The notes: generated by a model not told the origin, from the sequence alone. A DNA stretch of 64,000 nt from an uncultured delta proteobacterium (GCA_963698465.1 CAVOQY010000013.1:228559-292558); one strand, 5' to 3'. Positions 25,386-53,321 are shown, counted from the first letter of the stretch. Program-made: numbers and translations.

Positions 25386-25388
25386 GCC

Positions 25389-26093
25389 TCATAATTCCCC
25401 GGGGTTGCTGGAAAACAGATTCACCCTGGAATTGTTCACGATACCCTTGAGCTTCTTTTCAAGCTCCAAATAGAGATCCACATTGATCTTGGAAAGGGAG
25501 CAAGACAGAATCGTCTCCGAGTCATTCACCGTGATCCCGTCGATTTTTCCCTTCGGCAAAAGCGACCGGATCGCCGCCACGAGCTGTGGGCTTTTTGCTT
25601 CATATTCCGAAGTGGGGACCTTGATGATCAACATCCCCTTATCCGATTTTCCGGCCAGAAGGCTGCTGCTGAAGTGAATCAGACAAATGGCGGCAACCGC
25701 AACGAGAAGGATGATCGACAGAAAAAGGATATTGAAAATGGCGCAGCTGATGGATGACGCGATGATGAGCATGATAAAACCGATTTCCTCGGGTTCTTTA
25801 ACCGGGGTTCTGAACCTCACGATGGACAGTGCGCCAAGAAGGCCCAGGGAAAGGGGAAGCGAGAACTGGATGCAGATAAAGATGGCCGTGATGGAAACGG
25901 AAAGCAGCGGAAAGCTTCGATGGATCTTGCTCCCGGTGGCCCCCGCCCTTGAAAAATGAACGTAAAGAAAGGAAATAAAAAAAGCGCAAAGCAGCGATAT
26001 CAATAACACGAAAAAGAACGGAAAAAAACCGATGTCGGCCATTTTGGGATTCGAAAAACTGTTCAGCAGTTTCGACAGATCAATCTTTTCCAT
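25389..26093 (-). CDS. DUF4956-family membrane protein
   Basis: 234 aa with 4-5 TM helices; signature-like 'LGALSIVRFRTPVKEPEEIGFIM'. Confidence 0.75.
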   Translation of the reverse strand: MEKIDLSKLLNSFSNPKMADIGFFPFFFVLLISLLCAFFISFLYVHFSRAGATGSKIHRSFPLLSVSITAIFICIQFSLPLSLGLLGALSIVRFRTPVKEPEEIGFIMLIIASSISCAIFNILFLSIILLVAVAAICLIHFSSSLLAGKSDKGMLIIKVPTSEYEAKSPQLVAAIRSLLPKGKIDGITVNDSETILSCSLSKINVDLYLELEKKLKGIVNNSRVNLFSSNPGEL

Positions 26094-26150
26094 TGATTTT
26101 TCCTAATGTCGGCAGGTTTGGAGAAGAAGCCCGAAGCTCCTTGAAAGGGC

Positions 26151-26861
26151 TCAGCCTCTTTTCATCCGTTCGAAGCAGGTTTTGTACTTTGAAAACGACT
26201 CTTTCCTGCAGCCCAGGCCCAAGACCGGGGTGAGAGCCCGTGGAAGTTCGTCGAATGGCCCTTTGATCTCGAAGACTCCGTTTTCCAGAAAAAGGGATGG
26301 GGGCTGCGCAAAGAAGAGTGTATTTGCCTTCGGCGCCGAGATGTCGCAGTCCACGCAAATACGAGCGCCGGAAACCGGTTCGACAAACCGCCACCGCTTG
26401 TAGGTGATCTGGATCGTGGGGAAAAGGCTCTCCCCGAAAAGCTCCCCTTCTGCCCTTAAAAGAAGCGAAATTTCAAAAAAAGCGTCCGCGGTCAGCTCCG
26501 CCCGATCCAGGAACCATCCCGGAATTTCGCATTTTTTCTTTCTCTTTTTCCGAGCGGTGCCTGTTTTTCGCTTGACCTCGAGAAATGAAACCTCTCCATG
26601 CCCCTCGAGCTCGCTTTCAGAGTACCACCGGATCCTGTATTTCGACTTGAGGTGATCGCTGTTGACCTTTTCATTGAGCGACCGCAGGTCCACCGTATCG
26701 AAATAAATGCTGGAAACGACATTGTACGGAAAAAGAGGGTCCGGCAGGCAGCAGTATTGGACATAGCCCAAAACACTGGGAAGACGTCCATTTGAAAAGA
26801 CGTACTTCTGTTCATAGTCCAATGATTCTATGAGGCCTTTGAATAATTCCATATTCGTCAT
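26151..26861 (-). CDS. VTC-domain (polyphosphate-polymerase-like, CYTH/triphosphate-tunnel) protein
   Basis: 236 aa; 'YEQKYVF', 'SIYFDT', 'KYRIRWY', 'FLEVKRK', 'ITYKRWRF', 'RICVDCDI', 'VFEIKG', 'SKYK'. These are the alternating charged strands expected of a tunnel fold. The start codons (26861 or 26852) lie inside repeat copy B. Confidence 0.75.
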   Translation of the reverse strand: MTNMELFKGLIESLDYEQKYVFSNGRLPSVLGYVQYCCLPDPLFPYNVVSSIYFDTVDLRSLNEKVNSDHLKSKYRIRWYSESELEGHGEVSFLEVKRKTGTARKKRKKKCEIPGWFLDRAELTADAFFEISLLLRAEGELFGESLFPTIQITYKRWRFVEPVSGARICVDCDISAPKANTLFFAQPPSLFLENGVFEIKGPFDELPRALTPVLGLGCRKESFSKYKTCFERMKRG

Positions 26862-29288: not shown

Positions 29289-32200
29289 TCAAGGTACCCG
29301 ATTCACTTTGAGCGAGAAATCTTCGTGTTCTAGCGTCAAGTTCGGGTTGTAACAAGGATCTCCTTGGGCAAGGACTTTGTTCCATTGTCTTTGGAAGTGC
29401 CTGATTTCTTTTTGAAACCGAAATTTTTGTTCAGGGGTTTCTTCGTATCCTCTCGACGCGGACTCGTGATGAACCGCTTCGCAATAAGGTGTAAAAATAT
29501 TAAAAAGGTCTTTTTGCCGCAAACGCAAACAAAAATCAATATCATTTAATGAAACGGCCAGGTTGTCCTCGTCGAGCCCCCCCGTTTCGAGGAAGGCTTT
29601 TCTCTTCACCATCATCATGGCCCCTGAAACCGCACTGACATTTTGAATGCACATCAACCGGTTCCCATAGCCCTTGTCGTCCCCTGGTGCATGCCGATGG
29701 GAATGGCCGGCAAAGCCGGCGATACCGACAATGACCCCGGCATGCTGAATCGTCCGGTTTGGGTAATAGAGTTTTCCTCCAACCGCGCCAACCTCTTCCC
29801 GTTGGGCGTGTTCGAGGAGCGCCTCTATCCAGTCGCAACTGAGGATCTCTACATCATTGTTCAGCAGGAGAAGCATCTCCCCCGAAGCCAAGGAAACCCC
29901 GTAGTTGTTGATTTTCGAGTAATTAAAGGGCACAGGGTACTCGAAAAAGCGGACCCGTGAATCGGCCCCTTCCAACTGCTTCATCAGCCCGAGCGTTTCC
30001 GGCATCCGGCTCCCGTTGTCGATCCCGAGGATTTCGAAGTGGGTCCAGGTCGACTTGGACAAGATGGCCTCGACGCACTTTTTCAGGAAAACGGGCTGGT
30101 CTTTAAAAGGCACAACGATGCTGACCTTCGGGTTCCCCGAAATTTTCCTTTTGACCCGATAGAAAAAGGGCATGTTCGCCTTTTCCACCGATCCTGGGAT
30201 GCTCCGCCGACCAAGAGCGGCTTCCAGCGCCCGTTTCCCGGATTCGTGGGCGTAGCTCTTGTTGGCGGGGTTAAAACTCGTGGAGGATGCGCTTTTTCGC
30301 CAGAAATACGTCACTTTGGGGATATGATGGATTTTAGGTGTTTTTTCGGAAAGCTTCAATATCAGGTCGTAGTCCTGCGCTCCGTCGCATCCCGGATCAA
30401 ACCCTCCTATCGCATCGAAGAGCGTTCTTTTGAATACCAGGAAGTGGGTGATGTAATTGTGCGACAGAAGCAAGTCCGGAGAAAAATCAGGCTTGAAAAT
30501 TGAATCGTGGGCCCTTCCAGCTTCATCGATGAGGGCCTCGTCCGAGTAAATGACATCCGGGTCTTTTTCGTTGATGGCTTTCACCACTTCGATCAGCGCA
30601 TCCATCGTCAACAGGTCGTCGTGGTCCAGAAGCGCGAGGTATTCGCCTGTCGCCATGGCGGCCGCTTCGTTGGTGGCCTGGGAGATGCCTCGGTTTCCAT
30701 CCAGCAGCCTTGTTTTTATCTTTTCGGAATGCATCGCGCATTTCTTTAAAATCTCGCGCACGTGTTTCGTTTCGCTTCCGTCGTCGACAAGGCAAAGCTC
30801 CCAGTTTTTATAGATCTGCCGCCGGACGGACAGGATCATTTCTTCCAGATGTTTTTCGCCGGTGTTGTACACGGGCACAAGGATGCTGATTTTTGGTTTT
30901 TTATTAAGGGCTTCTAAGAACAGATTAGGCTCCCTTTCCTCGAAAATACCGAATTCGAGATAGTGCCCTAAAGGATCCACGCCCGAGCGCGCTACATCGG
31001 AATATTTTCCAAGATAATAGCCGCCGTCGAAAAGGGGGCTCGTCGCTTTTTTTGTCCTCACCCCTCGGATCAGATAGTGCTCAAGAAGGGTTCTGTCCCA
31101 GCGTTTTGCGTCCGGGTGTTGCGCCGTATAGAAGCTGTACGTAAAAAGCGGGTTAGGGTCCCGTCCCTCCTTTGAACCGGACTGGACGTAGTGCTCCAGG
31201 GCGTTTATTCCTGCAGCATGCACGTCCGGGTTGCTTCTCCAATAATAGTAGGTGTCGAACAAGGGGTGAGGGTTGAAGCCCTCCCGGGCTCCCCGGGTAA
31301 GGTAATGTATTAAAGGATTCGTTTGGGTTTCCCGGGCCTGCCGGCAGTATTTAAGATAATAAACGGGATCAAACAGTAAGTGCGGGGTACAACCGTTTTT
31401 CCACCCGGTTTCCAGGTAGTGCGCAAGGGGGTTCACATCGCTCTCAGCCGCCTCAGGGTTTTGACTTTTATAGTACGCCGTGTCGAAAAGCGGATGCGGA
31501 TCAAAGCCTTGCTCTGCGCCCTTCTCCATGTAATGCCTCAGGGGGTTCATCCCGCTCTGGGACACTTCCGGGTTGCGCATCGCGTAATAGTTCGTGCTGA
31601 ACAAAGGGTGCGGATTAAGACCTTCCGCAGCCCCCGCACGTAAAAAGTGCACCAGGGGATTCACACCGCTCTCAGCCGCCCCCGGGTTCTGACTTTTATA
31701 GTACGCCGTGTCGAAAAGCGGATGCGGATCAAAGCCTTGCTCTGCGCCCTTCTCCATGTAATGCCTCAGGGGGTTCATCCCGCTCTGGGACACTTCCGGG
31801 TTGCGCATCGCGTAATAGTTCGTGCTGAACAAAGGGTGCGGATTAAGACCTTCCGCAGCCCCCGCACGTAAAAAGTGCACCAGGGGATTCACACCGCTCT
31901 CAGCCGCCCCCGGGTTCTGACTTTTATAATACGCCATGTCGAACAGGGGATGCGGGTCCCGACCCTCCGCCGCGCCGCTTGTAAGGTAGTGCGTGATGGG
32001 ATCGATCCTCATCGCTTTGACGTCCGGGTTTCTGTTCAGGTAATCAGCCTCGTCGAAAAGGCCTGATTGACGGATGAGCGGGTACTCCCCCCGGACTCTG
32101 AACACCGCGGTTTTCCAGCGGCTCGAATGAACCCTTGCGCCCTTTGAAAATTTCCTCACCGGCGCCGTCAATTTCCACGATGACGATTCCAGCAGGCTTT

Positions 32201-32777
32201 CCCTGATCCTTCGTTCAGCCTCAAGCGTTTCTTTCAGAAATATCGTCTCGCGCCCAAGCTTCTCCAGTTCGGCTTTGATCCCCTGGACCGTTTTTTCGAG
32301 TGCCTCCCCTTTTTCGGCGCCGCGGTCAATCTTTCCGATATATTCCAAAACTTTCTCTCGGTAATCCGTCTGAGTTTCTTGACAAGCCTTCCAAAGATAC
32401 GGAATGGTTTCCTTGCCGACAGCTTCGAACCGTGTCCAGAACGTGACACTCTCGATGGGGGCGTTGAAGACGTGAACGTAAATCTCGGGGGAATCTGTTG
32501 CAAAAATGAGGCGGCGGTCTTGCCTGAACATGGCGTTACTGCTGAAATTGCCGACCTCGAAAACGTGGCCTCCTGGGTTCTGAATTTCGATCTTCATCAG
32601 ATCCAACACCAGGTAATCTTCCGCAGGCCGCAGACAAAGGCTTCGGATGAGCTGTCCTTCTTTGCCCGGTATGAAGGTTATTCTTTCCTCTTTTCGGACA
32701 ATTTCCACCACCAGGTTTCCTTTTTCGGAAAAACCGGAACCCGTGTCCAAAAGAAGTCTGGCGTTGGCAAGCGGCAT
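29289..32777 (-). CDS. Giant glycosyltransferase: N-terminal beta-rich module + coiled coil + 10 x 38-aa repeats + two GT2 domains
   Basis: 1162 aa. Repeats run aa ~241-618 (nt ~30924-32057). GT2-1: 'ISILVPVYNTGEKHL', 'LCLVDDGS', 'GEYLALLDHDD'. GT2-2: 'VSIVVPFKDQ', 'ILGIDNGS', 'LLLLNNDVE'. The ATG shares one base with the upstream TAA (TAATG). Confidence 0.85.
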   Translation of the reverse strand: MPLANARLLLDTGSGFSEKGNLVVEIVRKEERITFIPGKEGQLIRSLCLRPAEDYLVLDLMKIEIQNPGGHVFEVGNFSSNAMFRQDRRLIFATDSPEIYVHVFNAPIESVTFWTRFEAVGKETIPYLWKACQETQTDYREKVLEYIGKIDRGAEKGEALEKTVQGIKAELEKLGRETIFLKETLEAERRIRESLLESSSWKLTAPVRKFSKGARVHSSRWKTAVFRVRGEYPLIRQSGLFDEADYLNRNPDVKAMRIDPITHYLTSGAAEGRDPHPLFDMAYYKSQNPGAAESGVNPLVHFLRAGAAEGLNPHPLFSTNYYAMRNPEVSQSGMNPLRHYMEKGAEQGFDPHPLFDTAYYKSQNPGAAESGVNPLVHFLRAGAAEGLNPHPLFSTNYYAMRNPEVSQSGMNPLRHYMEKGAEQGFDPHPLFDTAYYKSQNPEAAESDVNPLAHYLETGWKNGCTPHLLFDPVYYLKYCRQARETQTNPLIHYLTRGAREGFNPHPLFDTYYYWRSNPDVHAAGINALEHYVQSGSKEGRDPNPLFTYSFYTAQHPDAKRWDRTLLEHYLIRGVRTKKATSPLFDGGYYLGKYSDVARSGVDPLGHYLEFGIFEEREPNLFLEALNKKPKISILVPVYNTGEKHLEEMILSVRRQIYKNWELCLVDDGSETKHVREILKKCAMHSEKIKTRLLDGNRGISQATNEAAAMATGEYLALLDHDDLLTMDALIEVVKAINEKDPDVIYSDEALIDEAGRAHDSIFKPDFSPDLLLSHNYITHFLVFKRTLFDAIGGFDPGCDGAQDYDLILKLSEKTPKIHHIPKVTYFWRKSASSTSFNPANKSYAHESGKRALEAALGRRSIPGSVEKANMPFFYRVKRKISGNPKVSIVVPFKDQPVFLKKCVEAILSKSTWTHFEILGIDNGSRMPETLGLMKQLEGADSRVRFFEYPVPFNYSKINNYGVSLASGEMLLLLNNDVEILSCDWIEALLEHAQREEVGAVGGKLYYPNRTIQHAGVIVGIAGFAGHSHRHAPGDDKGYGNRLMCIQNVSAVSGAMMMVKRKAFLETGGLDEDNLAVSLNDIDFCLRLRQKDLFNIFTPYCEAVHHESASRGYEETPEQKFRFQKEIRHFQRQWNKVLAQGDPCYNPNLTLEHEDFSLKVNRVP
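31441..31945 (-). repeat. Tandem 228-bp coding repeat, about 2.2 copies, near-perfect
   Basis: 31441-31668 and 31669-31896 are identical except for a few bases at the unit starts. A partial third unit begins at 31897. This is also visible as identical antisense ORFs at 31380/31647/31875. Confidence 0.9.
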
Positions 32778-35700
32778 TAATAAACCCTATCGAAAAGCTT
32801 CATCGAAAGGCGCGGAAATTTTCCGTGAAAACTTGTGCGGATGCAATTCAGCAGGAAATCGAAATCCCAGGGTCCCGTGTGTTCTCTTTTCAATCCGCCG
32901 ACACGATCTGCGACCGCCTTTCTGAAAAGAATGAACGGCCCTACCTCGTGGTTGACCTCGAGCATCGGTTCGGCGAAAAGGCTATCCTCCACGCGCACCC
33001 CCTCGACACCTGGAATTTGCTGGTCACAGAAAAGCAGATCTACATCGGGATATCGATTTACCAGACGTACATATTCGAACAGGGCCTCCATACGGGGTGC
33101 AACCTGCTTCAAGAAAAGAAGGAACTCGCCCGAAGCAGTGGAAAGGGCCCTGTTCAGCGCCTCGGGCAGCGGTTCACCTTTTTCTGCGGGGCATCCTCGT
33201 ATGCGTGCATCCTTCTCTTGAGCGCTTTCCGCGACCGGTCCCAGTTCCTCACGGTCCTCTGCATCAAATACCAGGATTGACTCCCAGTTCCGGTAAATCT
33301 GAAGGCAAAGGGAGTCCAGGAATTCCTGCGCCTGGGCTCTGGAAAGTCCGCGGAAATCAACGATCAGGGTGATCAGTGGCTGGTGGATGAATCGATCCAG
33401 CAAGGGATTCGGCTTCTTCTTGGCCGGGATGCCATATTGAAGATAGTGGGCCAGGGGATTGCTCGGGGGACTCGCGGCTTCCGGGTTTTGACTCATATAA
33501 TATAAGGTGTCGAAGAAGGAACAAGGGTTTTTCCCCTGCCCTGCCCCGACTTCGATAAAATGGACAAGGGGGTTTTGCCCTTCCATCAGCGCCTCCAGGG
33601 CTTCCCTCAGGTAATAGTCACTTCGAAATGCCGGGTTGGGGTCCCTGGCTTCTTTCCAGCCGTGTTCCAGGTAGTGCGCCAGAGGGTTGACGCCTGATTC
33701 GCGCACGTCGGGGTTTTGCCGGAGGTAGTACCGGGTGTCGAAAAGGGGGCCGGGGTTGAGCCCTTCTGCCTCGCCTTTCTCCAGGTAATGCACCAGGGGG
33801 TTTTCCCCGGCTTGGAGCGCTTCAGGGCTTTGCGCCAGATAATAGGCCGTGTCGAACACCGGGTTGGGGTTTTTCCCCTCCCGCGCCCCTTCGGTAAGGT
33901 AGTGCACCAGGGGGTTTTGCGCCGACGCCGCTACCTCCGGGTTGCTCCGGAGGTAATAGGCCGCATCGAACACCGGACTGGGGCTCTTGCCTTCCCTTCC
34001 CCCCTTTTCCAGGTAGTGAACCAAAGGGTTCTGCCCTGACCTTGAAACCTCTGGATTTTTTGAAAAATAATAGGAGGAATCGAAAAGGGAACACGGGTTG
34101 CGTCCCTCCCTCCCTCCAGCTTGGAGGAAGTGCGCCAGGGGGTTGACGCCCGACTCCGCCACGTCGGGGTTTTGCCGGAGGTAGTACCGGGTGCCGAAAA
34201 GGGGGCCGGGGTTGAGCCCTTCTGCCTCGCCTTTCTCCAGGTAGTGCACCAGGGGGTTGGCGCCAGATTCCAGCGTCCCGGAGCATTGCGCCAGGTAATA
34301 GGCCGTGTCGAACACCGGGTTGGGGTTTTTCCCCTCCCGCGCCCCTTCGGTAAGGTAGTGCACCAGGGGGTTTTGCGCCGACGCCGCTACCTCCGGGTTG
34401 CTCCGGAGGTAATAGGCCGCATCGAACACCGGACTGGGGCTCTTGCCTTCCCTTCCCCCCTTTTCCAGGTAGTGAACCAAAGGGTTCTGCCCCGCCTCGA
34501 GGCTTTCCGGACCGTTGGAAAGGTACCAGGACGTTTCAAACAGGGGATGCGGGTTTCTCTCTTCTAAGGCACCTGTCTCCAAAAAGTGAACGAGGGGGTT
34601 GATTCCCGACAGGGCGACATCCGGGTTTTTCTCCCGATAGTACCGGGGATCGAAGAGCGGGTTCGGGCGAAACCCTCCGGGTGCGCCTTTTTGCAGGAAA
34701 TGCTCCAGGGAATTTTCCTTCTCTCCCATCTGCTCCCCGACGGCGGACCGGTAATAGCGGGGGTCGAACAGCGGGCTGGGCTTCCGGTTTTCACGGTCCC
34801 CATTTTCCAGGAAGTGCTGGAGAGGATCGATGCCGGACTCTTTCACGTCGCTGTTGTGCTGAAGGTAATAACTTGCATCGAACAGGGGGTGCGTATTCCT
34901 CCCCTCCGTTGCACCGTGCCTGATATAGTCCCAGAGAGGGTCCTTTTTCAAAAAGCCCACTTCCGGGTACCGCAGCCGGTAATAGGAGGGATCGAACAGG
35001 GGGCTTTTTTTCAATTTACGGTAGGCCCGGCAACCGGGGATCGCGCCGGTGAACCCCGCAACCGCAAGGAGATGCAACACGGCAAGCATGCCCTTCCTGA
35101 AAGCCCTGAGCCCCCTCCACCATGGATGGGTTTTGAGGCTTTCCAGTGTCTCTGCCAGTTTCTGGTTTTCGGCTTCCAGGCGAATTATATGGCTTTCTTC
35201 CTGAAATACCTGGGCCTGAAACTGGTGCAGTATCTGATCTTTTACCTGGATTTTTTTGGCTTCCTTTACGATTTCCGAGGCCTCTTCCTGAATGAGATCT
35301 TCCTTTTCCTTCAGGGTTGACAGGTATTTTTCCCTTTCGCGGCTGAAGGCATCCAGGGACTGCGCCAGCGCCTTTTGGGCCAGAATAAAATCCGGCGTTT
35401 TCGGCCAGTCCATTTCAGCTTCCAGGATGAAAAATCCTTCGAGACTCGGCCTGGAAATTGTTTCCGTCACCTTGAACAGGAGATAGGGCTCGGGATTTAG
35501 CGCCGAAAAGATCTCTCCCTGGTCATTTCGGGTAAAAAGAACGTTTTCAAGGATTGCAGAGTCGGCGATCTGCTTGGGGTTTTCCAGTCGCAGGAGGGTT
35601 TCTTCTACGATCCCCGTTTCGGGGACTCTTTTCACCGTGAGCGAGTAAAGCGTGAAAAACCCCAGTCGGTTTGCCGGCTTCAGTTTCAGCCACGCGAGGG

Positions 35701-37507
35701 GAGCCCCATGCACGTTGAAGGGAAAAGCGAGGACCTGCCTGGAAACCCCGGTCTGTCCCGAGACGTAAACGCTTCTTTCCTCCGAAAAATCTTTTCGGCT
35801 CCCGGACCAGAAGAGCTGGGCGGAAAAGGATGCGGCAGCTGCGCCGGCGTCCGGAAAGAAAAGGGACGCTTCCACCATTTTTCGGATGTTGTTCAGGCCC
35901 CTCTGAAAATTGATACCGGATTGCAGCCTCTCTTCTCTTTCTATGAAATCCTCCATGTCGAGTCGGTGCTCCAGGGACAGCGTCCTGAAACCATAAGCGA
36001 CAAACCCCCTGAGATTTGTTATTCCCTTCAGGTCGAAAATTGGCTTCAGCAGCTTTTCGCTGCTCTTGCCGAACCACAGCAAAGCCCGGAAGAGAAGAAA
36101 TTCCGGTGATACCGGTTCTTCGAGGATCCATTCGTCATCGATGACGCGCCAGTTCCCGTCTTCTCCAACGACGATGTTGAAGGGCAACAGATCGACGTTT
36201 TTGCCGCCTCCGTTCGAACGGACCAACCCGGCGACGAAATCATGGTAGCTTTTCAGTTGAACTTCGAAAGGGGCCGACTCGCGGCACTGAAAAACGGCCT
36301 CCAGCCATTTTTCCGAAAGAAGGATTCCCCGGTAGTACGGCTTTTCGTGAAGGGAGTGCTTCAAGCCCGACCCCTTGCACTGGAAGACAGCCTGGGGGAC
36401 CGTGGCCTGCTTGACCACCCTGTCTAAGCCCGACGGCTTCCGGGTCAGAGTCCGGTAAGCCGGCCTCCTTCCCGAATCCGAGAAAAAGACGAAATCGTCC
36501 TGGATTACTTTACCGAGGATCTCATCGGAGGCCCCGGCTGCGATGAGAAATGAATTGGCGTAATGTGCCAGCCGACCCGAACGGTGAAGGGCCTTCCACA
36601 CGAAAAATTCATAAGCGTCCGTGCTCCAGGGACCGAGATAGTCCCTGGATTCCACCCGGTAAAGCATCGAATAGGCGAAGGGGTCGCTCTCGAGAAAGGC
36701 ATCGGACAGTATGGCCTTGGGGAGGCAGTAGTCTGGAAAAGGAAAAAGGAAGCGGCGTTTTTGAAATCCGGCTTTTTTCAAAATGCTGCCCCATTGGTCC
36801 AGGTCAAACGTTTCGCGGCCTTCTTTCTTGGGGTAGCCGTAAAGACCCGTGTAAGGGGTCCCGGAGTGCCCTTCAGCAGCTCCAAGCCAGAACTTGAGAC
36901 CGAAGCGGTTGTCTGCGGCGACGACCAGCAGACCTTTCTCCTCGAGCGCCGGTCTCACCCTGGAGAAAAATTCTACCGCAGCCGTCTCCGCATCGCCCAG
37001 GCGAAGGAAACGCCGGTTGAGGTCGTCCGCAAGGCCGAGAACAAAAATTGCACGGTAGGCCTTTTCGGGCATTTCCAGTTCCGGAAAGGGAATGCTGACG
37101 ACATTCACGTTTTCAAGGCCCCGGCACCGAAGCGCCGCGAGCCCCGCCTTGCGCGGGCAGTCCTCCACCGCGTCCACTTGGAACCCCGCCTCCCCCAGAT
37201 ACCGGGTCACCGCTCCGCATCCGCAACCCAGCTCCAGGACCGCACCCGCCCCCTTTAGATTGAGCCCCCTCACAATATTGGCTCGGCGGGGATCGAGCTG
37301 CAATCGAAGTACGGTTTCATGCTCCGGGATCCTTCTTTCCATCTCCACGGAGGAAGAACTCAGGTCCTGGACGGATTCGAGGATCTCCCGTATTTTTTCA
37401 TAAGGAAAAGCTCCGTCAGCGACCTTTTCTTCCCGTCTTTCCTCGGACATCCAGACACCGGATTCGTTTTTCACCAGGCGATGGGTTTTTAGAAGCGGAA
37501 ACGTCAC
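32777..37507 (-). CDS. Giant multidomain protein: SAM-methyltransferase + kinase-like domain (WbdD-like head) + beta-rich module + coiled coil + hydrophobic helix + 14 x 38-aa repeats + degenerate GT2-like tail
   Basis: 1576 aa. 'VLELGCGCGAVTRYL' (MTase motif I); 'VDLLPFNIVVGEDGNWRVIDDEW' (kinase-like DxxxxN..IDxE). Coiled coil at aa ~705-795; repeats at aa 838-1369 (nt ~33401-34996). The tail 'LITLIVDF..ILVFDAEDRE..GEFLLFLKQVAP' lacks the DxD motif. The GTG start overlaps the upstream stop (GTGA). Confidence 0.8.
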   Translation of the reverse strand: MTFPLLKTHRLVKNESGVWMSEERREEKVADGAFPYEKIREILESVQDLSSSSVEMERRIPEHETVLRLQLDPRRANIVRGLNLKGAGAVLELGCGCGAVTRYLGEAGFQVDAVEDCPRKAGLAALRCRGLENVNVVSIPFPELEMPEKAYRAIFVLGLADDLNRRFLRLGDAETAAVEFFSRVRPALEEKGLLVVAADNRFGLKFWLGAAEGHSGTPYTGLYGYPKKEGRETFDLDQWGSILKKAGFQKRRFLFPFPDYCLPKAILSDAFLESDPFAYSMLYRVESRDYLGPWSTDAYEFFVWKALHRSGRLAHYANSFLIAAGASDEILGKVIQDDFVFFSDSGRRPAYRTLTRKPSGLDRVVKQATVPQAVFQCKGSGLKHSLHEKPYYRGILLSEKWLEAVFQCRESAPFEVQLKSYHDFVAGLVRSNGGGKNVDLLPFNIVVGEDGNWRVIDDEWILEEPVSPEFLLFRALLWFGKSSEKLLKPIFDLKGITNLRGFVAYGFRTLSLEHRLDMEDFIEREERLQSGINFQRGLNNIRKMVEASLFFPDAGAAAASFSAQLFWSGSRKDFSEERSVYVSGQTGVSRQVLAFPFNVHGAPLAWLKLKPANRLGFFTLYSLTVKRVPETGIVEETLLRLENPKQIADSAILENVLFTRNDQGEIFSALNPEPYLLFKVTETISRPSLEGFFILEAEMDWPKTPDFILAQKALAQSLDAFSREREKYLSTLKEKEDLIQEEASEIVKEAKKIQVKDQILHQFQAQVFQEESHIIRLEAENQKLAETLESLKTHPWWRGLRAFRKGMLAVLHLLAVAGFTGAIPGCRAYRKLKKSPLFDPSYYRLRYPEVGFLKKDPLWDYIRHGATEGRNTHPLFDASYYLQHNSDVKESGIDPLQHFLENGDRENRKPSPLFDPRYYRSAVGEQMGEKENSLEHFLQKGAPGGFRPNPLFDPRYYREKNPDVALSGINPLVHFLETGALEERNPHPLFETSWYLSNGPESLEAGQNPLVHYLEKGGREGKSPSPVFDAAYYLRSNPEVAASAQNPLVHYLTEGAREGKNPNPVFDTAYYLAQCSGTLESGANPLVHYLEKGEAEGLNPGPLFGTRYYLRQNPDVAESGVNPLAHFLQAGGREGRNPCSLFDSSYYFSKNPEVSRSGQNPLVHYLEKGGREGKSPSPVFDAAYYLRSNPEVAASAQNPLVHYLTEGAREGKNPNPVFDTAYYLAQSPEALQAGENPLVHYLEKGEAEGLNPGPLFDTRYYLRQNPDVRESGVNPLAHYLEHGWKEARDPNPAFRSDYYLREALEALMEGQNPLVHFIEVGAGQGKNPCSFFDTLYYMSQNPEAASPPSNPLAHYLQYGIPAKKKPNPLLDRFIHQPLITLIVDFRGLSRAQAQEFLDSLCLQIYRNWESILVFDAEDREELGPVAESAQEKDARIRGCPAEKGEPLPEALNRALSTASGEFLLFLKQVAPRMEALFEYVRLVNRYPDVDLLFCDQQIPGVEGVRVEDSLFAEPMLEVNHEVGPFILFRKAVADRVGGLKREHTGPWDFDFLLNCIRTSFHGKFPRLSMKLFDRVY
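33672..34491 (-). repeat. Tandem 456-bp coding repeat (four 38-aa units), about 1.8 copies
   Basis: 33841-34035 is identical to 34297-34491 (195 nt), with high similarity across the rest of the unit. Also visible as shared antisense ORF text at 33716..34039 and 34121..34567. Confidence 0.9.
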
Positions 37508-38394
37508 GCAACCATCCTTCCGGTCTTTCCCGCCATCCCGTCAAATACGCCCTTGAGGATGACTTGCGTCACGTCGAGGCGGTTTTGGAGAAGCGTCGAC
37601 AGCGCATGCCTGAAGTGGCGGTAAACCCAGACCGGGTAAAGCAGCAGTCTTAAGCCCTTGTAAAATTTTCTCACATAGAGGTACCGGTTCCGGATGGTGT
37701 AGTAGGCATAGAGTTTTTCCCGGTCCTTGGACGGGTTGTGCAGATGATGCGCCGCTTTTGATAGAGGGTCGATGACGACACGCGAGTTTCTTTTCCCGTC
37801 CGTATTTTCCGACCGGATTCTCTTGCAGAAATCGGCGATTTCCCCGCTGAAAAAATACCGCTCGTCGAGCATCCCTACGCTGCTGAAAACATCGGACTTG
37901 ACCAGCATCGCCGTCCCCGAAACATAGTCCACATCATAGATTTCCTGAGGGTCCTGGGGCTCCTGCAAATGGGTATGGTAATGCCAGGCGATATCCCTGC
38001 CGCCGGCATTCACGAGCCGGCCGGTGTCCCCGTCGTAAAGCAGAGGCCCGATGACGGCAATGTCCGGGTTATCTGCAAGGCTTCCGGTCATCTGCGAGAC
38101 GTCTTTTTCCTCGATGACGGCGTCGTTGTTCAAAAGCAAAACCGCCTCCGCCTTTTTCTTCAAGGCCGCCCGGATGCCGACGTTGCTTCCCCCGGAAAAA
38201 CCGAGGTTTTCACCATTTTGAATCAGTAAAACCTCGCCTGGAAGGCTTCTCAATTTGCGCCGCTCCTCTTCCCTGGAGTTGTTGTCCACCACCACGAGGA
38301 TCGGCTGAAGGCCGGACCACCGGCGTAGATTCGCGACGCAGGAGAGGGTCTCCTCCGAAGCGTTCCAGTTGAGGATGACGACGGCAAGCTTCAT
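37504..38394 (-). CDS. GT2 glycosyltransferase (rhamnosyltransferase-like)
   Basis: 296 aa; 'LAVVILNWNASEETL', 'LVVVDNNSREE', 'NLGFSGGSNVG', 'LLLNNDAV'. ATGA overlap with the upstream gene. Confidence 0.85.
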   Translation of the reverse strand: MKLAVVILNWNASEETLSCVANLRRWSGLQPILVVVDNNSREEERRKLRSLPGEVLLIQNGENLGFSGGSNVGIRAALKKKAEAVLLLNNDAVIEEKDVSQMTGSLADNPDIAVIGPLLYDGDTGRLVNAGGRDIAWHYHTHLQEPQDPQEIYDVDYVSGTAMLVKSDVFSSVGMLDERYFFSGEIADFCKRIRSENTDGKRNSRVVIDPLSKAAHHLHNPSKDREKLYAYYTIRNRYLYVRKFYKGLRLLLYPVWVYRHFRHALSTLLQNRLDVTQVILKGVFDGMAGKTGRMVA

Positions 38395-40484
38395 GCCTTC
38401 TCCAGGATAAGGATGTCCTGGCCATGAATTTCCGAAGCCCGGGTGCTCCAGTTCCCGAAATGGATGGGACCCGCGATCCTGAGACGTGCCTGTCCGATCA
38501 TTTCTTTCAGATAGGCTTCCTCGTAGGCGATGGCCGCTTCGGGGTTTTCCTCCACCATGACGCCGTACCTGTCGTCGGTTTTCTTGAAATCAAACGCTCC
38601 GTTTGCCATGTTCTTCCGCGAATCCTCGTTGAGCACGAAAGCCGACACCAAAGCCCTGCCGGTCCCGTTTTTAAGAACCCGGCGGATTTCATGCAGGTAG
38701 TTGAGGCAGGCTTCGGGCAGCATGTGGGTGAACACGGAGGTGGCGAAGGCAACGTCGAACGCTTCGTCGGGATAGGGAAACTTGAAATCCACGGCCAAGA
38801 GGGTTCCCTTGGGGTTGTATTCCTTACTGTAGATGTCTGCGTGTTTGAAGGTGAAACTGGGGTGAAGCCTGGATATCTTGTGGCGGCACCACCGGATTCC
38901 TTTGTTCACGATGTCGAATCCCTCGTACCGGCCCTTTCCTTTTATAAAGCCCGTGAAATGGATGGCCACCCTCCCGATCCCGCAGCCGATATCGAGCAGC
39001 GCCTCGTCGCCCTTGAGTATGCAGAACCGGAGAATGAGGTCGTGATACATTTTACCGGTTGCAAAAAATTCGGCGCTTCCCACAAAATTGAAGCGCGGCG
39101 GCGGGACCAGGCTCTTCTTGGCATAACAGTGGTAGAGAAACAGGAGCTCGTTAAGCATGCTGGACTCCTGGTTTCTCAGGACCGCGGCCGAGGTCCGGTT
39201 CATCCGGCCGAATACCCACCTCAGGGGATAGGAGAGTTTCCATGACGTGGAGCGGACGACCTCTTCGTACCTCGCTTCGCTCTTTTCGAGGTCTCTGCGA
39301 AGCCCGGCGAGCTGCTGCTCTGCAAGGCGAATCCTCCCGATTTCATTTTTCAATCGCTCGAGCTCTCCCCTGTTCCGGGCGATCGCTTCTGCCTGAAAAT
39401 CGAGGATCCGCTCGAAAGCGTTTTTCCCAATGGCGATGTAATCGAGGTCCACGCAAAGGCCCTGAATCTCGCCTTCCGGAACCTCCAGATGAATCTGGGG
39501 GTCACGCGTGGAAAAGATGAAATCCGGCCCTTCCCGGTGGATGGCATTGTCGCCCAGGGGTTTCACCCGGACCCTGGACCCGTCCCGAAGCGTCGCTTCG
39601 ATGCGGCCGATGCGCACCAGGCAGGCGTCGTTGATGGGGTCGAACCTCAGGCCTCTAATTTGTTCGAAGTCGGAAACATCGAACTCCACGCGCTTTTCTT
39701 CCCTGAACACGACCCGGGATATCACCTGCCTGTCGTTGAATCCCGAACCGGTGTCCACATAAAGCTGGGACACTTTCGGGACGATATAGATTTCCGCGCA
39801 GTCCCTGAACAGGGACCTGTGGTTGAAAATGACGTTTTTGATCATGAAAAACTGGTTTTCTTCCGAGATGGTGCTGAGCATGGAGGCCTTCCGGATCCGG
39901 TAGAAAAAAAGGGTCTTGGGGATCCGGTGGACCTTCAGCCCCATTTCGAGCAGGGAAAGCCAGAAATCCCAGTCCTCCAGGCCGTAGACCATGTTTTCGT
40001 TGTACCCGCCGACCTGCTCCCAGTGCTTTTTTCGAAACAGGGCCGAACAGAAGATGATGTTTTTTTTCAGGATGCGCTCCATGGAAAAAACCGGCAGATC
40101 CACGAGCCCGTCCCGTTCCCCGAAGTAAGCGGCCTGGCAGTAGACGACGCCGATCCCGGCGTTTCTGTCCAGGATGGGGACGGCTTCTTCCAGATACTCC
40201 TTCCCGATCTTGTCGTCCGCGTCCAGGGGAAGAATGTATTCCCCCGCCGACGCCCGGATCCCGTTGTTTCTGGCACTGGCGAGCCCGGCGTTTTCGGTGT
40301 GGATGACTTTCGTTTTTGGCCTGTCGAGTTGCGCCAGGAGGTTTTTCGTTTCCGGATCGTCGGAGCCGTCGTCGACAATGACGATTTCAAAGTCCGCGAA
40401 GGTCTGGTTCAAGACGGAATCCACCGCCTCTCCAAGGTACTTTCCGTGGTTGTAGCAGGGAATGACGACGCTGACTTTCGGCAT
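38391..40484 (-). CDS. Bifunctional GT2 glycosyltransferase / SAM-methyltransferase with a central beta-rich module and coiled coil
   Basis: 697 aa; 'VSVVIPCYNHGKYL', 'IVIVDDGSDD', 'LPLDADD', 'EDWDFW'. Module at aa ~238-352, coiled coil at ~355-410, then 'STSWKLSYPLR'. C-terminal 'LLDIGCGIGRVAIHF'. Confidence 0.85.
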   Translation of the reverse strand: MPKVSVVIPCYNHGKYLGEAVDSVLNQTFADFEIVIVDDGSDDPETKNLLAQLDRPKTKVIHTENAGLASARNNGIRASAGEYILPLDADDKIGKEYLEEAVPILDRNAGIGVVYCQAAYFGERDGLVDLPVFSMERILKKNIIFCSALFRKKHWEQVGGYNENMVYGLEDWDFWLSLLEMGLKVHRIPKTLFFYRIRKASMLSTISEENQFFMIKNVIFNHRSLFRDCAEIYIVPKVSQLYVDTGSGFNDRQVISRVVFREEKRVEFDVSDFEQIRGLRFDPINDACLVRIGRIEATLRDGSRVRVKPLGDNAIHREGPDFIFSTRDPQIHLEVPEGEIQGLCVDLDYIAIGKNAFERILDFQAEAIARNRGELERLKNEIGRIRLAEQQLAGLRRDLEKSEARYEEVVRSTSWKLSYPLRWVFGRMNRTSAAVLRNQESSMLNELLFLYHCYAKKSLVPPPRFNFVGSAEFFATGKMYHDLILRFCILKGDEALLDIGCGIGRVAIHFTGFIKGKGRYEGFDIVNKGIRWCRHKISRLHPSFTFKHADIYSKEYNPKGTLLAVDFKFPYPDEAFDVAFATSVFTHMLPEACLNYLHEIRRVLKNGTGRALVSAFVLNEDSRKNMANGAFDFKKTDDRYGVMVEENPEAAIAYEEAYLKEMIGQARLRIAGPIHFGNWSTRASEIHGQDILILEKA

Positions 40485-40493
40485 TCGGAAGCC

Positions 40494-43400
40494 CTACCCT
40501 TTCAAGGCCCGATCTCTTTCGGTAGAAACCGTTTCGCAGGCCCGTAAATCGGCAAGAATTTCGTCCAGAGCCTTTTTGTGGGGAATGAACTTCAGGTCGA
40601 TCTCCACTCGGATTTCAGCCGGCAGCGAGTGGGAGCCATCGATTTGGACGAGTGGGACCAGGATCTGCGGGTCGGCTCCCGTGGATTCGATTGCAAAAAA
40701 GCGCCCCGCATGGATTGCCGAGGCGGTACCGCCGGAGGTCAGCCCGTTCCATCCCGAATCCGGGCCGAACCGGGCGAGCGCCCGCTCATGGGAGCCATCG
40801 GCGACCTCGATCCGCCCCACGAAGACGACTCCGTCCCACATGCACGGGTCCACGCGCAGATGCAGGCTCCCCGCATCGGCGTGCAGTTTGACACCAATGG
40901 AAACCCACTCGCCGCTTCGGTATTCGTTTTTCAGGGACTTTGCTTCCGAATAACCGTCTCCCTGGTGCCAGTAAACCTGGCAGCTTTGCAGAGTGGGTGC
41001 GTTTTCCATTTCGAAGAAAAGCCGGATGTCGTTTTCGCAATTTCGGTAAAGATAAGCCGAGGCCTCCGAGAGGTAGGCGCGGTTCGGCCATCGGCGTCCT
41101 TTGATCTTTCGAAGAGCTTTTTCGAACCGGTCCGATGCGCGGTCCCAGTCCGGCCATCCGGACGCGGTGGCCCTGGCCCCTTCTTTGAGGCGCTCCAGGA
41201 TGTCCGGGCTGCGCTTGAGCAGGTTCAGGTGATGCACCACCCCCGCCTCGTCCCCGGCGGGCAGAACGAAGCTGTTGACGTTGTGACGGATGTACTCTTC
41301 GTGGCCGGTGACGTCGTAAACGATGGCCGTCCCGCCGCAGTGAAACATCTCCAGCGGGGGCCCGAACATCCCCTCCACGGTGCTCAGTTTCAGGAGCACG
41401 TCGCAGGAACGGTAGACAGGCGCCGTCTCGCGAATGGGAACCCTTGAAAAAATCCGGCTGACGCCTTCGATGGGGCCGGTCTCGGTCGGCGTGAGGAGCC
41501 ACACGTCGTCTGCCTCGGACTCCCTGGCCAGGGCTAACGCCTTTTCCACGTTCTTGAAGGGAACTCCCATCGGGCCTTCCACAAGGACCCTGAGCTTCCC
41601 CTTTTCCCTGGGCCTGATCGCGTCCCCAGCTTCCGTGTAAAGATCCTTCCGGACCCCATTTCGGACGACGAAAGGCTCGATGCCGAATTTTTCGTTGAGG
41701 TAATCCCGGATCCATCCGGCCTCGGTGATCACCGGAAGCGGCAAGAGATAAGTGCTTTCCACCAGGCGGCGGTAGGCCCTTTCCTCGGCAGTGGCGGTTT
41801 CTTGGCCGGGAAAAAACCGGGACTCGACGCTCTGGACGAAATAGAGATAGGTCTGCGCCCGCACCCGGTTCAGCAGAAGGGCACTCTGCCACCAAGTGGC
41901 GATAGCGAAGTCAAAACGCTCCTGAACCGCTTCGTCCAGGGTAAGCCACTCGAGGGTGCCGGCTTCCGGGTGCCATGAATAGCGTTCAGGCTGGACCTGC
42001 TCCCGGGTCAAGATGAAAACCTTGTAACCCTTTTTATTCAGCCGCACGGCATGTTCGAAGATCACGTAGGTCCCGCCGCTGATTTCGGGCACCCCCAGGA
42101 AAAAGGCGATTTTAATGCCTCTTTTGAAATTCAACCGGCTCAGCGCCCTGAAAAGCCTTTCCCCCGTGAAACGGAATACGGGCGGGCTTTCGGGAAACGC
42201 CTTTCGGTGGCGGTTTTCCCCGAAGAAACGCGCCGCGAACCCGATGCCGAGCCTATCCAGGAGGACCGGGTGCCAGATTCCTTTTTCCGATAACAACTTG
42301 GGCTCCTGGAGGACCTGCTTAAAATGGCTCCATCGCCTTTCTAGGGAAAGCGGATTGCGGCCCTCGAACCGCGTGAACTCGAAGACCCCGAAATTTTCCC
42401 GATGGTAAAGCCCCTTGAAAAACAGGGTTTCCCCGCGCGTCGGGCGGAACACCATCCGCGCGTGCTGCTGGGCATACCAACGGTCATCGGGCTCGAGGCA
42501 CTGCGTTACGCACGCCATGCGGTTGATTTCTCCGAAGACCTCTGCGATACGGGCCTGGACAGGCTGAATCTTTTCCCGGTAAAGCGCCCTTTCCTCGGGG
42601 GTATCCGAAAGCAGGACCCTCACCTCACTGCCCGCCCGGCCGTCTCCTGCCCCCTCCTCGTAGCCGTCCGCGCTTCCGTGGGTAGCGCCGAGGAGCATCT
42701 CGAAAAGGGACGTGTTGCTCCTGTAAACCTCGAAAAAGGGCGTCGGCCGCGGCGCGTTGGCAAACAGGATTCCCTTCTTGCTGTTGAGCGGCGTTACGGA
42801 TGTCGGGTTGAGAAGTCCGATGTAGTATCCCCGGATCCTCACCTTTCCGTCCAGAATGTGAAAAAGGTTGTCCTGGATGGACCCCTTCCATCCCACGTCC
42901 ACAATGGTGAGGCATTTTTCATAAAAATCCGTGCCGAAGGATTCCAGGTATCTCAAAAAAACATTCTTCTGCCGGGTCCGCTTCGACTCGTAAAGGCGCC
43001 GGAAGGGTCCGTATTCGAGGAGGGATTGGAACTGAGGGCTGTTTTGAAAATCCGGTACCCTGTCGCCTGGCCCGATGGAAAGTCCCCCGCAGATGCCCTC
43101 GGCCTCTTCATCGGTGAAACTGAGGCTTAGCATGAATTCCCGGGGGGATATGTGCCGGTACTGCTGAAAGATCCCGTTGAAGCTTTCTTGGGCAAGCGGC
43201 TTCAATGAGCAAAGATAGGTGGATTTCCGGGAAACCAGAAGATAATGGGACGCGATGACGCTTTTGCCAAACCTTTCTTCCTGGAACCGGTCGAACAGGG
43301 CCTTTAAAAACTCCCCTTCCTTGGAAAAAAAACAGATCCGGTCAATTTTCTCGCGGGCAAGTTCCCGAAACAGGAGAAAGACGAACCGGTAAAGGGTGAG

Positions 43401-44255
43401 CCCCATTTCGGGGAAAATGCTTCCGCCCAGCCTGGAGGCAAAGGAAGACATTTTCTCGGCGATTTCTTGAGGCGAAAGCGGTTCTACCTTTCGTGCGGGT
43501 GCATCGGTGCCGCGGGTTTCCACCCGTTTCGGGGGGACCTGAAAGGTCAGGATCCCTTTTTCCCGGGCCATCCGGATATCCGAGTGCGCGTTGTCCCCTA
43601 CCATGAGCATCTTCTCGGGCGGACACCCGTAATGCTCTATCATCTTGTCGTAGAGCCGCCCCGATGATTTTTTCAGCCCAAAGTCCGCGGAAATGAAGAG
43701 CTGTTCCACATGGCCCGACATCCCGTGACAATCCAAAAATGAACCGAAATGGGCTGCAGGAACGTAGAAATCCGAAACAACCGCGATGCGGGCCTTGTTT
43801 TGGGATACAAAGACCAGCAGGTTTTTCACCTCCGGGTTGACCCGCTGAAGCAGTTTCTCGGTTGCAAGCTCTATGTCCAAGATCCGTCTGGAAAAATCAT
43901 TTTCCTGAAGGTCCCCTGGGAAATGGGGATATTCTTCCTTCATAAGGGCATGAAAGGCTAAAGCAAATTCCAGGAAGTTGAATTCCGGGTCGTTTCCTTT
44001 TTCGGCGTTTTCACGGCAAAGTTTTGCTTCCAGGTCCCTTCTGAGTTGGTAAATCATCTCCCCCGCGATTTCCCGGCCCAGAAGCGTCCCGAGCTGCCTG
44101 GAGGCGATCTTTTTGGTGGTCTCGGGTTCTACGGTCCGGGTCACCAGGGTGTCGAAAAAATCGAAGCAAAAAACTTCGATTCCCGGATATGCACTGACGA
44201 ACCGGGAAAAGGCGTCTATGAGTTTTGAGGAATCGATGGGGCTATCTGTTTCCAA
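40494..44255 (-). CDS. Giant protein: HAD-superfamily hydrolase domain + uncharacterised region + GT4-like (GT-B) domain + C-terminal beta-rich module
   Basis: 1253 aa. HAD motifs 'VFCFDFFDTLVTR', 'VVSDFY', 'LMVGDNAHSDI'. 'TIVDVGWKGSIQDN'. GT-B part 'GVPEISGGTYVIFEHAVRLNKKGYKV', 'STVEGMFGPPLEMFHCGGTAIV'. TTG start gives a 14-nt overlap with the upstream gene. Confidence 0.75.
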   Translation of the reverse strand: METDSPIDSSKLIDAFSRFVSAYPGIEVFCFDFFDTLVTRTVEPETTKKIASRQLGTLLGREIAGEMIYQLRRDLEAKLCRENAEKGNDPEFNFLEFALAFHALMKEEYPHFPGDLQENDFSRRILDIELATEKLLQRVNPEVKNLLVFVSQNKARIAVVSDFYVPAAHFGSFLDCHGMSGHVEQLFISADFGLKKSSGRLYDKMIEHYGCPPEKMLMVGDNAHSDIRMAREKGILTFQVPPKRVETRGTDAPARKVEPLSPQEIAEKMSSFASRLGGSIFPEMGLTLYRFVFLLFRELAREKIDRICFFSKEGEFLKALFDRFQEERFGKSVIASHYLLVSRKSTYLCSLKPLAQESFNGIFQQYRHISPREFMLSLSFTDEEAEGICGGLSIGPGDRVPDFQNSPQFQSLLEYGPFRRLYESKRTRQKNVFLRYLESFGTDFYEKCLTIVDVGWKGSIQDNLFHILDGKVRIRGYYIGLLNPTSVTPLNSKKGILFANAPRPTPFFEVYRSNTSLFEMLLGATHGSADGYEEGAGDGRAGSEVRVLLSDTPEERALYREKIQPVQARIAEVFGEINRMACVTQCLEPDDRWYAQQHARMVFRPTRGETLFFKGLYHRENFGVFEFTRFEGRNPLSLERRWSHFKQVLQEPKLLSEKGIWHPVLLDRLGIGFAARFFGENRHRKAFPESPPVFRFTGERLFRALSRLNFKRGIKIAFFLGVPEISGGTYVIFEHAVRLNKKGYKVFILTREQVQPERYSWHPEAGTLEWLTLDEAVQERFDFAIATWWQSALLLNRVRAQTYLYFVQSVESRFFPGQETATAEERAYRRLVESTYLLPLPVITEAGWIRDYLNEKFGIEPFVVRNGVRKDLYTEAGDAIRPREKGKLRVLVEGPMGVPFKNVEKALALARESEADDVWLLTPTETGPIEGVSRIFSRVPIRETAPVYRSCDVLLKLSTVEGMFGPPLEMFHCGGTAIVYDVTGHEEYIRHNVNSFVLPAGDEAGVVHHLNLLKRSPDILERLKEGARATASGWPDWDRASDRFEKALRKIKGRRWPNRAYLSEASAYLYRNCENDIRLFFEMENAPTLQSCQVYWHQGDGYSEAKSLKNEYRSGEWVSIGVKLHADAGSLHLRVDPCMWDGVVFVGRIEVADGSHERALARFGPDSGWNGLTSGGTASAIHAGRFFAIESTGADPQILVPLVQIDGSHSLPAEIRVEIDLKFIPHKKALDEILADLRACETVSTERDRALKG

Positions 44256-46278: not shown

Positions 46279-46286
46279 GTCTTTCT

Positions 46287-52467: not shown

Positions 52468-52510
52468 TGCATCTGATCTTTATTAAATGATTCTCTAAGA
52501 CAGGGATTAT

Positions 52511-53284: not shown

Positions 53285-53321
53285 TTCCGCTGTGGGCGTT
53301 TTCTCAAGAATTGTTTAAAAG

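Follow-up and report, generated by a model that had tools for sequence, protein, structure and literature searches.

Domain Organization of the Target Gene

The analysed stretch of DNA (64,000 nucleotides (nt), referred to as the window) originates from an uncultured delta proteobacterium (GCA_963698465.1, CAVOQY010000013.1:228559-292558) and is occupied over its entire length by a glycan-biosynthesis cluster encoded on the minus strand. Positions 32777..37507 form one intact minus-strand open reading frame (ORF) that begins with GTG and comprises 1576 codons, in the following called the target, whose product very probably belongs to the chain terminator family of the Klebsiella pneumoniae O7 ORF6-N type. 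Its domain anatomy, family membership, motif status, and synteny were established in the present analysis. An earlier note on this DNA had named a methyltransferase-kinase head, a coiled coil, a hydrophobic helix, a repeat array, and a degenerate glycosyltransferase family 2 (GT2)-like tail, and all of these features were recovered in their places on the minus strand (Table 1). The 14-repeat array and the inactivated GT2 domain, both added after the head, are unusual for the ORF6-N family.

On the upstream side, the start codon of the target and the stop codon of a GT2 gene share bases (GTGA); on the downstream side, the target's stop codon does so with the ATG of the next gene (TAATG), in the following called N. 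Due to these overlapping starts and stops, the upstream GT2 gene, the target, and N are regarded as translationally coupled. Head-family proteins are denoted by P-numbers (e.g., P0002) and related genomic loci by L-numbers (e.g., L083).

Table 1. Features of the target and of adjacent genes, with positions counted from the first letter of the window; aa, amino acids; Ig, immunoglobulin; CBM, carbohydrate-binding module.
Feature	Position	Strand	Residues and remarks
Whole ORF	32777..37507	minus	1576 aa, GTG start, overlaps both neighbouring genes
Class I methyltransferase-fold domain	36608..37255	minus	aa 85-300; Pfam sub-threshold, AlphaFold, Foldseek
Atypical kinase domain	35858..36553	minus	aa 319-550; K366, D439, N444, D457, E459, W460
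Beta-sandwich (Ig-like, CBM-like) module	35396..35836	minus	aa 558-704; AlphaFold model, recurs elsewhere in the cluster
Coiled-coil helix	35132..35356	minus	aa 718-792, 75 residues; AlphaFold and heptad test
Hydrophobic helix	35030..35092	minus	aa 806-826 (MLAVLHLLAVAGFTGAIPG), basic residues on both flanks
14 tandem 38-aa repeats	33407..35002	minus	aa 836-1367
Recent four-repeat duplication (456 nt)	33635..34546	minus	repeats 5-8 copied as 9-12
GT-A-fold pseudo-GT2 domain	32780..33382	minus	aa 1376-1576, without DxD
Upstream GT2 gene	37504..38394	minus	296 aa; same place in loci L083 and L084 (49-51% identity)
Downstream gene N	29289..32777	minus	1162 aa: N-terminal module, coiled coil, 10 x 38-aa repeats, two intact GT2 domains
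GT2/beta-sandwich/coiled-coil/methyltransferase protein	38391..40484	minus	697 aa

Assignment of the Head to the ORF6-N Type

The ORF6-type terminator family was first characterised in 2024 (J Biol Chem; PMC11231755). ORF6 of K. pneumoniae O7 consists of a methyltransferase, a 223-residue kinase that was previously unannotated, an Ig-like putative CBM, a coiled coil, and two GT2 polymerase modules. The kinase has AmiN as its nearest structure and D441 as its catalytic residue; ORF6-N puts methylphosphate on the terminal rhamnose in vitro, phosphorylation is abolished by D441A, and the GT module of ORF6 is disabled by the mutation D975A/D977A/D978A (PMC11231755).

The head of the target (aa 1-800) exhibits the same order of methyltransferase, atypical kinase (~220 aa), Ig-like module, and coiled coil, and the catalytic Asp residues of both proteins are aligned. 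In the AlphaFold model of aa 1-716, for which the alignment contained 61 homologues (predicted local distance difference test (pLDDT) 88.7), a Rossmann methyltransferase is followed by an alpha/beta domain at aa ~320-550 and by the beta-sandwich, here at aa 560-701. More than 400 protein matches to the head were obtained, none of them above 40% identity to the target, with the closest relatives occurring in metagenome-assembled genomes of Desulfobacterota and marine Gammaproteobacteria. A profile search for the head family retrieved 596 genomic loci including Pseudomonas cichorii L045. Identity between L045 and K. pneumoniae O7 ORF6-N amounts to 50%, whereby the latter sequence (442 aa) was rebuilt from the machine-read PDF text of SI Fig. 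9 and contains gaps and errors. This rebuilt ORF6-N is 44-50% identical to the profile-retrieved Pseudomonas and Atlantibacter proteins and 31% identical to the target over 313 aa (E 1e-30). The published mutagenic primers encode KFID441AVP and RVLEIGAGCGAITRFLG, the target counterparts of which are VD439LLPFN and LELGCGCGAVTRYLG, and the alignment anchored on the profile pairs D441 of ORF6 with D439, G91/G93 with G94/G96, and E112 with E115 of the target. Differences are found behind the head, where ORF6 continues into two active GT2 modules, whereas the target continues into the hydrophobic helix, the 14 repeats, and one DxD-less GT2 domain. At the target locus, the candidate polymerase with two GT2 domains is encoded by a separate downstream gene, N.

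In the earlier note, the protein was described as WbdD-like, with the coiled coil and the 14 repeats acting as one spacer and the repeat number setting the chain length. WbdD (E. coli O9a and K. pneumoniae O3; PMC3482155) and the target indeed have in common a methyltransferase-kinase head, a coiled coil, and a membrane-associating segment in a like order, and Foldseek lists WbdD (4azs, 4ax8) for the head with 567-579 aligned columns. However, the alignment with WbdD by structure gave template modelling (TM) scores of 0.22/0.33 and a root-mean-square deviation of 18 Å, with simple methyltransferases ranking ahead of WbdD in the same Foldseek list, and no profile match was obtained. WbdD was absent from the PDB matches up to E 10 with the head sequence, a 62-sequence profile, and a Pseudomonas relative as queries; sequence and profile searches of the PDB with the head returned generic methyltransferases only. 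Furthermore, the ORF6 kinase is, according to its authors, unlike the WbdD kinase in sequence and structure (PMC11231755), and WbdD is devoid of the Ig-like module, the 38-aa repeats, and the pseudo-GT2 domain, all three of which are present in the target. Membership in the WbdD family was therefore rejected and a functional analogy alone retained: the head followed by the coiled coil stands as a terminator-type module of the ORF6-N type, not as a homologue of WbdD with its different type of kinase.

An Intact Kinase Next to a Degenerate Methyltransferase

The kinase-like region noted before carries the motif D439-x4-N444-x12-D457-x-E459-W460, which is conserved in the family: all 62 relatives share E459 and W460, and D439, N444, and D457 are found in 60 of them. 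Inspection of the catalytic residues revealed that every residue of the motif is kept in the target, including D439 as the equivalent of the catalytic Asp. Of the 105 columns with >=90% conservation in 61 relatives, 24 differ in the target, more than in any other of the 62 members (family median 2). These deviations are unevenly distributed, 22 of them being located in the N-terminal segment and the methyltransferase domain (77 conserved columns) and two in the kinase domain (25 conserved columns), both of the latter conservative exchanges of L to V.

The methyltransferase previously assigned to aa ~85-260 was confirmed as a class I fold by the AlphaFold model and Foldseek, and the LELGCGCGAV motif is present; the Pfam methyltransferase matches (aa 85-249) all remain under the gathering scores. 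The GxGxG loop (G94, G96, G98) and E115 are kept. The residues Y28, Y66, and Y158, which bind S-adenosylmethionine in ORF6, are replaced by V29, L69, and D162 in the target, further substitutions in the pocket are N140P, D152R, E199D, and D213G, and the family motifs YSDGD, WPSEYHL, ANFN, YDAV, GVLEYA, and AIENR are all changed. Judging from these replacements, the methyltransferase is probably inactive or altered. Since the most degenerate methyltransferase of the 62 relatives is combined with intact kinase motifs, the cap made by the target is likely to consist of phosphate only, and the methyl or phosphomethyl cap considered earlier appears doubtful due to the degenerate methyltransferase domain. 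The kinase is expected to be active, presumably on the glycan of the cluster.

It is conceivable that the decay extends to the whole protein, which would then be a non-catalytic scaffold, i.e., a decayed paralogue that organises the assembly complex via its coiled coil, repeats, and dead domains. Two of the three enzyme-like domains are degenerate, and the target is the most deviant of the 62 members at conserved columns, as such a scaffold would suggest. Yet the kinase domain with its two conservative deviations and its full set of motif residues, including the catalytic Asp, the intact reading frame of 1576 codons, and the confident models of both halves of the protein render a scaffold quite improbable.

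The reverse pattern was observed in P0111 and P0113, which show D439N, N444H/R, and D457N together with a consensus methyltransferase and thus appear to be kinase-dead, methyl-only terminators, analogous to methyl-only variants of WbdD. Taken together, the methyltransferase-degenerate target and the kinase-dead P0111 and P0113 predict phosphate-only and methyl-only caps, respectively. The 697-aa protein encoded at 38391-40484 comprises a GT2 domain, a beta-sandwich, a coiled coil, a STSWKLSYPLRW motif, and an intact methyltransferase, in this order. In L083 the corresponding position is taken by a stand-alone methyltransferase, with which the methyltransferase part of the 697-aa protein shares 55% identity, and the 697-aa protein could methylate in trans.

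Coiled Coil and Hydrophobic Helix

A second AlphaFold model covers aa 717-1576 (pLDDT 85.7, predicted TM score 0.75). The coiled coil, previously estimated at about 90 aa, is modelled as a single uninterrupted helix of 75 residues (aa 718-792), and the heptad test is supportive, with a hydrophobic occupancy of the a/d positions of 0.68 compared to 0.50 +/- 0.05 in shuffled sequences (2 out of 2000 shuffles reach 0.68). Its length is about 11 nm, as estimated from the standard rise per residue. In case of WbdD, the coiled coil keeps the terminator off the membrane, whereby a chain must attain a minimum length before it is capped, as summarised in PMC11231755 with reference to Hagelueken et al. 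2015.

The hydrophobic helix noted before is present at aa 806-826 and contains the sole hydrophobic segment of the target (aa 808-826, mean Kyte-Doolittle hydropathy 1.78). It probably represents a membrane anchor. Since this anchor is situated between the coiled coil and the repeat array, it is likely that the coiled coil alone acts as the molecular ruler. A single spacer formed by the coiled coil and the repeats, as proposed together with the WbdD homology, is difficult to reconcile with this arrangement: the anchor separates the two elements and precedes the repeats, which consequently add no distance between membrane and head. Moreover, the repeat is common in sugar enzymes other than terminators: over 12,000 protein clusters contain it, along with GT2, GT4, RgpF, sulfotransferases, and other non-terminators. 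The variable repeat number, with three repeats in P0006 and eight in P0008 at 89.7% identity of these close orthologues, and the expansion of the target array by four repeats would agree with such a spacer. Considering these points and the missing relationship to WbdD, a WbdD homologue with repeat-dependent chain length is regarded as unlikely.

Alternatively, the chain could truly cross the membrane with the helix at aa 806-826, in which case the repeats and the tail would be periplasmic, with the DxD-less GT-A fold binding exported glycan and no nucleotide sugar. A hydropathy of 1.78 over 19 residues falls in the transmembrane range, and loss of the DxD motif is expected where nucleoside diphosphate sugars are unavailable. 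Nevertheless, we consider this topology highly improbable in view of the basic residues bordering the helix at either end, the merely amphipathic SWRLTAPLR-type segment that P0002 and P0005 (both with the same tail) as well as N possess at this place, and the thousands of proteins in which the same repeats precede active and necessarily cytoplasmic GT2 or GT4 domains.

The 38-aa Repeat Array

The count and unit length given in the earlier note proved exact: the array consists of 14 repeats of 38 aa without insertions or deletions. The repeat consensus is PLFDxxYYLxxNPEVxxSGxNPLxHYLExGAxEGxxPx, and in the AlphaFold model, in which the array is of high confidence, each unit is composed of a small beta-bridge and three short helices. 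DNA identity among most repeats of the target is 45-65%. An exception is given by the recent four-repeat duplication (Table 1), the 378-nt core of which is 92% identical, with repeats 6 and 10 being 100% identical in DNA. The ten repeats of N contain duplications of their own, and in aa 277-428 of N a recent two-repeat duplication (228 nt) was observed, with a 76-aa block (PLFDTAYYKSQNPGAAESG...EKGAEQGFDPH) occurring twice in near-identical form. Due to the duplications within both the target and the N arrays, both are considered dynamic. A collinear ancestry of the two arrays was rejected, since the repeat-by-repeat identity matrix is without a diagonal, from which we conclude that they were reshuffled independently. 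Repeat numbers of head-family genes and their adjacent N-like genes are 1/3, 3/5, and 14/10 in the three pairs compared.

The repeat occurs in 22,095 cluster representatives (clustering at 50% identity) at E <= 1e-3 and in 12,869 at E <= 1e-10, with GT2, GT4, RgpF, GH99-like, Stf0 sulfotransferase, GT61, and methyltransferase as partner domains. In many of the repeat-bearing proteins a basic or hydrophobic helix at the start is located directly ahead of the repeats, and a unit of anchor helix, repeats, and catalytic domain is thus regarded as generic. No Pfam or NCBIfam model matches the repeat, a PDB sequence search with the repeat yielded chance matches only (E 0.7), Foldseek with the C-terminal half as query listed nothing but GT-A enzymes among its top 50 matches and no solved repeat structure, and no description of the 38-aa repeat was found in literature searches.

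With little confidence, one may speculate that the repeat is an unrecognised helical-solenoid module, very widespread among cytoplasmic polysaccharide enzymes, and that the target array (14 repeats, 10 prior to the duplication) and the N array (10 repeats), together with the pseudo-GT2 domain, constitute an adjustable docking platform or a second ruler, which sets the geometry or stoichiometry of terminator and polymerase and hence chain length. If true, glycan length control would be heritable and quickly tunable through recombining repeat copy number.

The Pseudo-GT2 Tail and the Partner Gene N

The C-terminal tail retains the GT-A fold, as indicated by its top Foldseek matches PcManGT, TarP, TarS, and SpsA (~205-215 aligned columns, E 1e-7 to 1e-5), and the Pfam GT2 match at aa 1394-1466 (29.6 bits, profile positions 14-85 of 168) ends before the DxD motif. 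The degenerate state of the tail and the loss of DxD, noted before from single motifs, were corroborated by an alignment of 38 sequences (target, first GT2 domain of N, and 36 others), in which PVYN is replaced by DFRG, DDGS by FDAED, LLDHDDE by LFL-KQVA, and YSDED by FCDQQ. A degraded DxD was also observed in the single GT2 tails of P0002 (RKDD), P0005 (SNYE), P0078 (SQFD), and L016 (GGFD). DHDD or DNDD is retained in those relatives that possess two GT2 domains. The target tail scores 120 bits with P0005, 115 bits with P0002, and 68 bits with N, and due to this closer relationship to P0005 and P0002 it is regarded as a pseudo-domain that has long been retained rather than newly copied from N. 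A copy of the first GT2 domain of the polymerase persists in the terminator in inactivated form, a pattern found again in at least four relatives, which suggests a docking role for the pseudoenzyme.

Judging from its two intact GT2 domains, N is the candidate polymerase. An N-like gene after the terminator gene is also present in L081, L083, and L084, and in case of P0002, which has the same architecture as the target, the gene order is wzt, terminator, and N-like polymerase. Since N is translationally coupled to the target, contains the same repeats, and possesses two intact GT2 domains, docking is the preferred reading of the tail; that the repeats and the pseudo-GT2 domain indeed dock the terminator to N is proposed tentatively, as a possibility short of probable. 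The N-terminal module of N is linked to the beta-sandwich solely via the 697-aa protein, aa 239-422 of which match aa 6-208 of N (E 1.3e-14; unit of module and coiled coil), and via the L081/L083 orthologues.

A comparison to the other known systems places the repeats and the pseudo-GT2 domain on the same side as the polymerase recruitment region of WbdD, which is membrane-proximal as well, and in both cases the polymerase is a separate protein (WbdA for WbdD, N for the target). WbbB (K. pneumoniae O12 and Raoultella terrigena), as far as described in PMC11231755 with reference to Williams et al. 2017, resembles the target in combining a terminator head, a coiled coil, and membrane-proximal GT folds in one polypeptide, whereas it contains a Kdo transferase as terminator and active C-terminal GT modules instead of a kinase and a single inactive GT2 domain.

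Export Context and Proposed Mechanism

Genomic neighbourhoods were surveyed for 80 of the 596 loci. An ATP-binding cassette (ABC) ATPase of 430-590 aa, i.e., of Wzt length, is encoded on the strand of the match in ~46 of these 80 loci, mostly ending just before the head gene, and the cap-recognition domain Wzt_C was detected in all eight of these ATPases that were scanned. A Wzt_C-bearing ATPase beside the head gene is the signature of terminator-dependent ABC export, and an association of the head-family relatives with cap-dependent ABC export is therefore supported. In L082, wzt is situated directly upstream of the terminator gene. The close relatives L083 and L084 share the local gene order of the window, with a gene for a ~296-aa GT2 protein located upstream instead of wzt.

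Based on these findings, we propose the following mechanism. The head would be held on the distal tip of the ~75-residue coiled coil, the base of which would be fixed at the cytoplasmic membrane face by the helix at aa 806-826. Once long enough, the lipid-linked glycan would reach the head, where the beta-sandwich may help to catch its non-reducing end, and the atypical kinase with D439 as catalytic residue would phosphorylate the terminal sugar, whereupon polymerisation would stop. The cap would be either phosphate alone or phosphate to which a different cluster enzyme adds the methyl group. The 14 repeats and the DxD-less GT-A domain, located behind the anchor, would be non-catalytic and tether the terminator to the polymerase N. 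This explanation as a whole, a membrane-associated chain terminator of the ORF6-N type including the docking tail, has in our estimation somewhat better than an even chance; the narrower claim that the target is a terminator kinase is considered fairly probable.

Several findings weigh against this explanation. Neither wzm nor wzt was found in the window (~26 kb upstream and ~32 kb downstream of the target) by motif scan and tblastn, and no ABC ATPase occurs among the genes in the ~8.5 kb past the left window end; with no wzm/wzt nearby, cap-dependent export is no more than a possibility for this organism. ORF6-type terminators, in contrast, are usually encoded beside a Wzt with a cap-binding domain. 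To this are added the aforementioned errors in the rebuilt ORF6-N sequence, a PDB fold search of the head that was swamped by matches to the methyltransferase domain (relevant to the kinase fold), a residual or altered activity that the methyltransferase may have in view of its retained GxGxG loop and E115, and the transmembrane course that the hydrophobic helix could take. Concerning the docking tail, the expectation of an N-like partner downstream of every pseudo-GT2 terminator fails for L016, and a direct homology of the N-terminus of N to the target beta-sandwich was rejected (BLASTP E 0.05, hidden Markov model E 0.81).

The lack of wzm/wzt in or near the window would be explained by a glycan-decorating kinase, which phosphorylates internal or side-chain sugars of a polymer exported without cap recognition. 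Other decorating enzymes of the cluster share the beta-sandwich (CotH kinase, methyltransferases, GT-C), and the capping pair has a degenerate methyltransferase, both in agreement with a decorating function. This function is nevertheless rather unlikely, given the same-strand Wzt-type ATPases mostly found directly ahead of the head gene in the surveyed loci, their Wzt_C domains, and the characterised family member being a terminator needed for export (PMC11231755). Furthermore, the coiled coil as the hallmark of ruler-type terminators is kept, and transporter genes may be situated elsewhere on the 556-kb contig.

Length control by a terminator and a ruler rests on few characterised cases, namely WbdD, WbbB, and K. 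pneumoniae O4 and O7. The target locus places the O7-type terminator family, here in a split format, far beyond the enterobacteria. Of main interest is that the pseudo-GT2 tail recurs, that the cap enzymes decay module by module, and that the repeat family is large and unannotated.

Other Features of the Cluster

Besides the genes described above, the cluster encodes a GDP-mannose dehydratase, an epimerase, many GT2, GT4, and GT-C enzymes, methyltransferases, and radical-SAM enzymes, as well as a CotH kinase, an MBOAT protein, and GDSL esterases. The target beta-sandwich recurs in four cluster proteins (23241-25385, 38391-40484, 40494-44255, and 54718-57117), with matches to aa 96-209 of the CotH-kinase protein (E 2.8e-10), aa 653-796 of a GT-C/PMT_2 protein (E 5.6e-8), aa 1090-1223 of a HAD+GT1 protein (E 4.6e-5), and aa 251-337 of the GT2-module-methyltransferase protein (E 6e-4). 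It may represent a common glycan-binding or complex-forming module. Proteins of ~640-656 aa with the same beta-sandwich near the N-terminus are encoded in the vicinity of the terminator genes of L007, L009, L010 (two copies), L011, L014, and L022, which originate from several gammaproteobacterial metagenome-assembled genomes. An assignment of these ~640-aa proteins as CotH kinases was rejected, since they have no Pfam match of any kind.

Genes for the CotH kinase, a DUF4956 protein, and a VTC-domain protein are located side by side at 23241-26861. VTC domains are known from polyphosphate metabolism, and the three genes together could hint at additional phosphorylation chemistry.

Three GT-C-type membrane proteins, two small polyprenyl-phosphate-type GT2 proteins, and a DUF2304 segment are encoded at 6486-8195, 18330-19055, 49231-51522, 51709-52467, and 54718-57117. 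This set resembles three-component periplasmic glycan-decoration systems (PMC11127046). Across ~52000-64000 the GC content drops from ~0.55 to ~0.40, with the genes of this part still encoding glycosyltransferases, a radical-SAM/SPASM enzyme, and methyltransferases, and the low-GC part may have been acquired separately.

The epimerase ORF (45136-46584, 482 aa) overlaps the GDP-mannose dehydratase gene (46287-47501) by ~300 nt. Due to the fact that the epimerase Pfam domain begins at aa 109, the listed start of this ORF is probably situated too far upstream.

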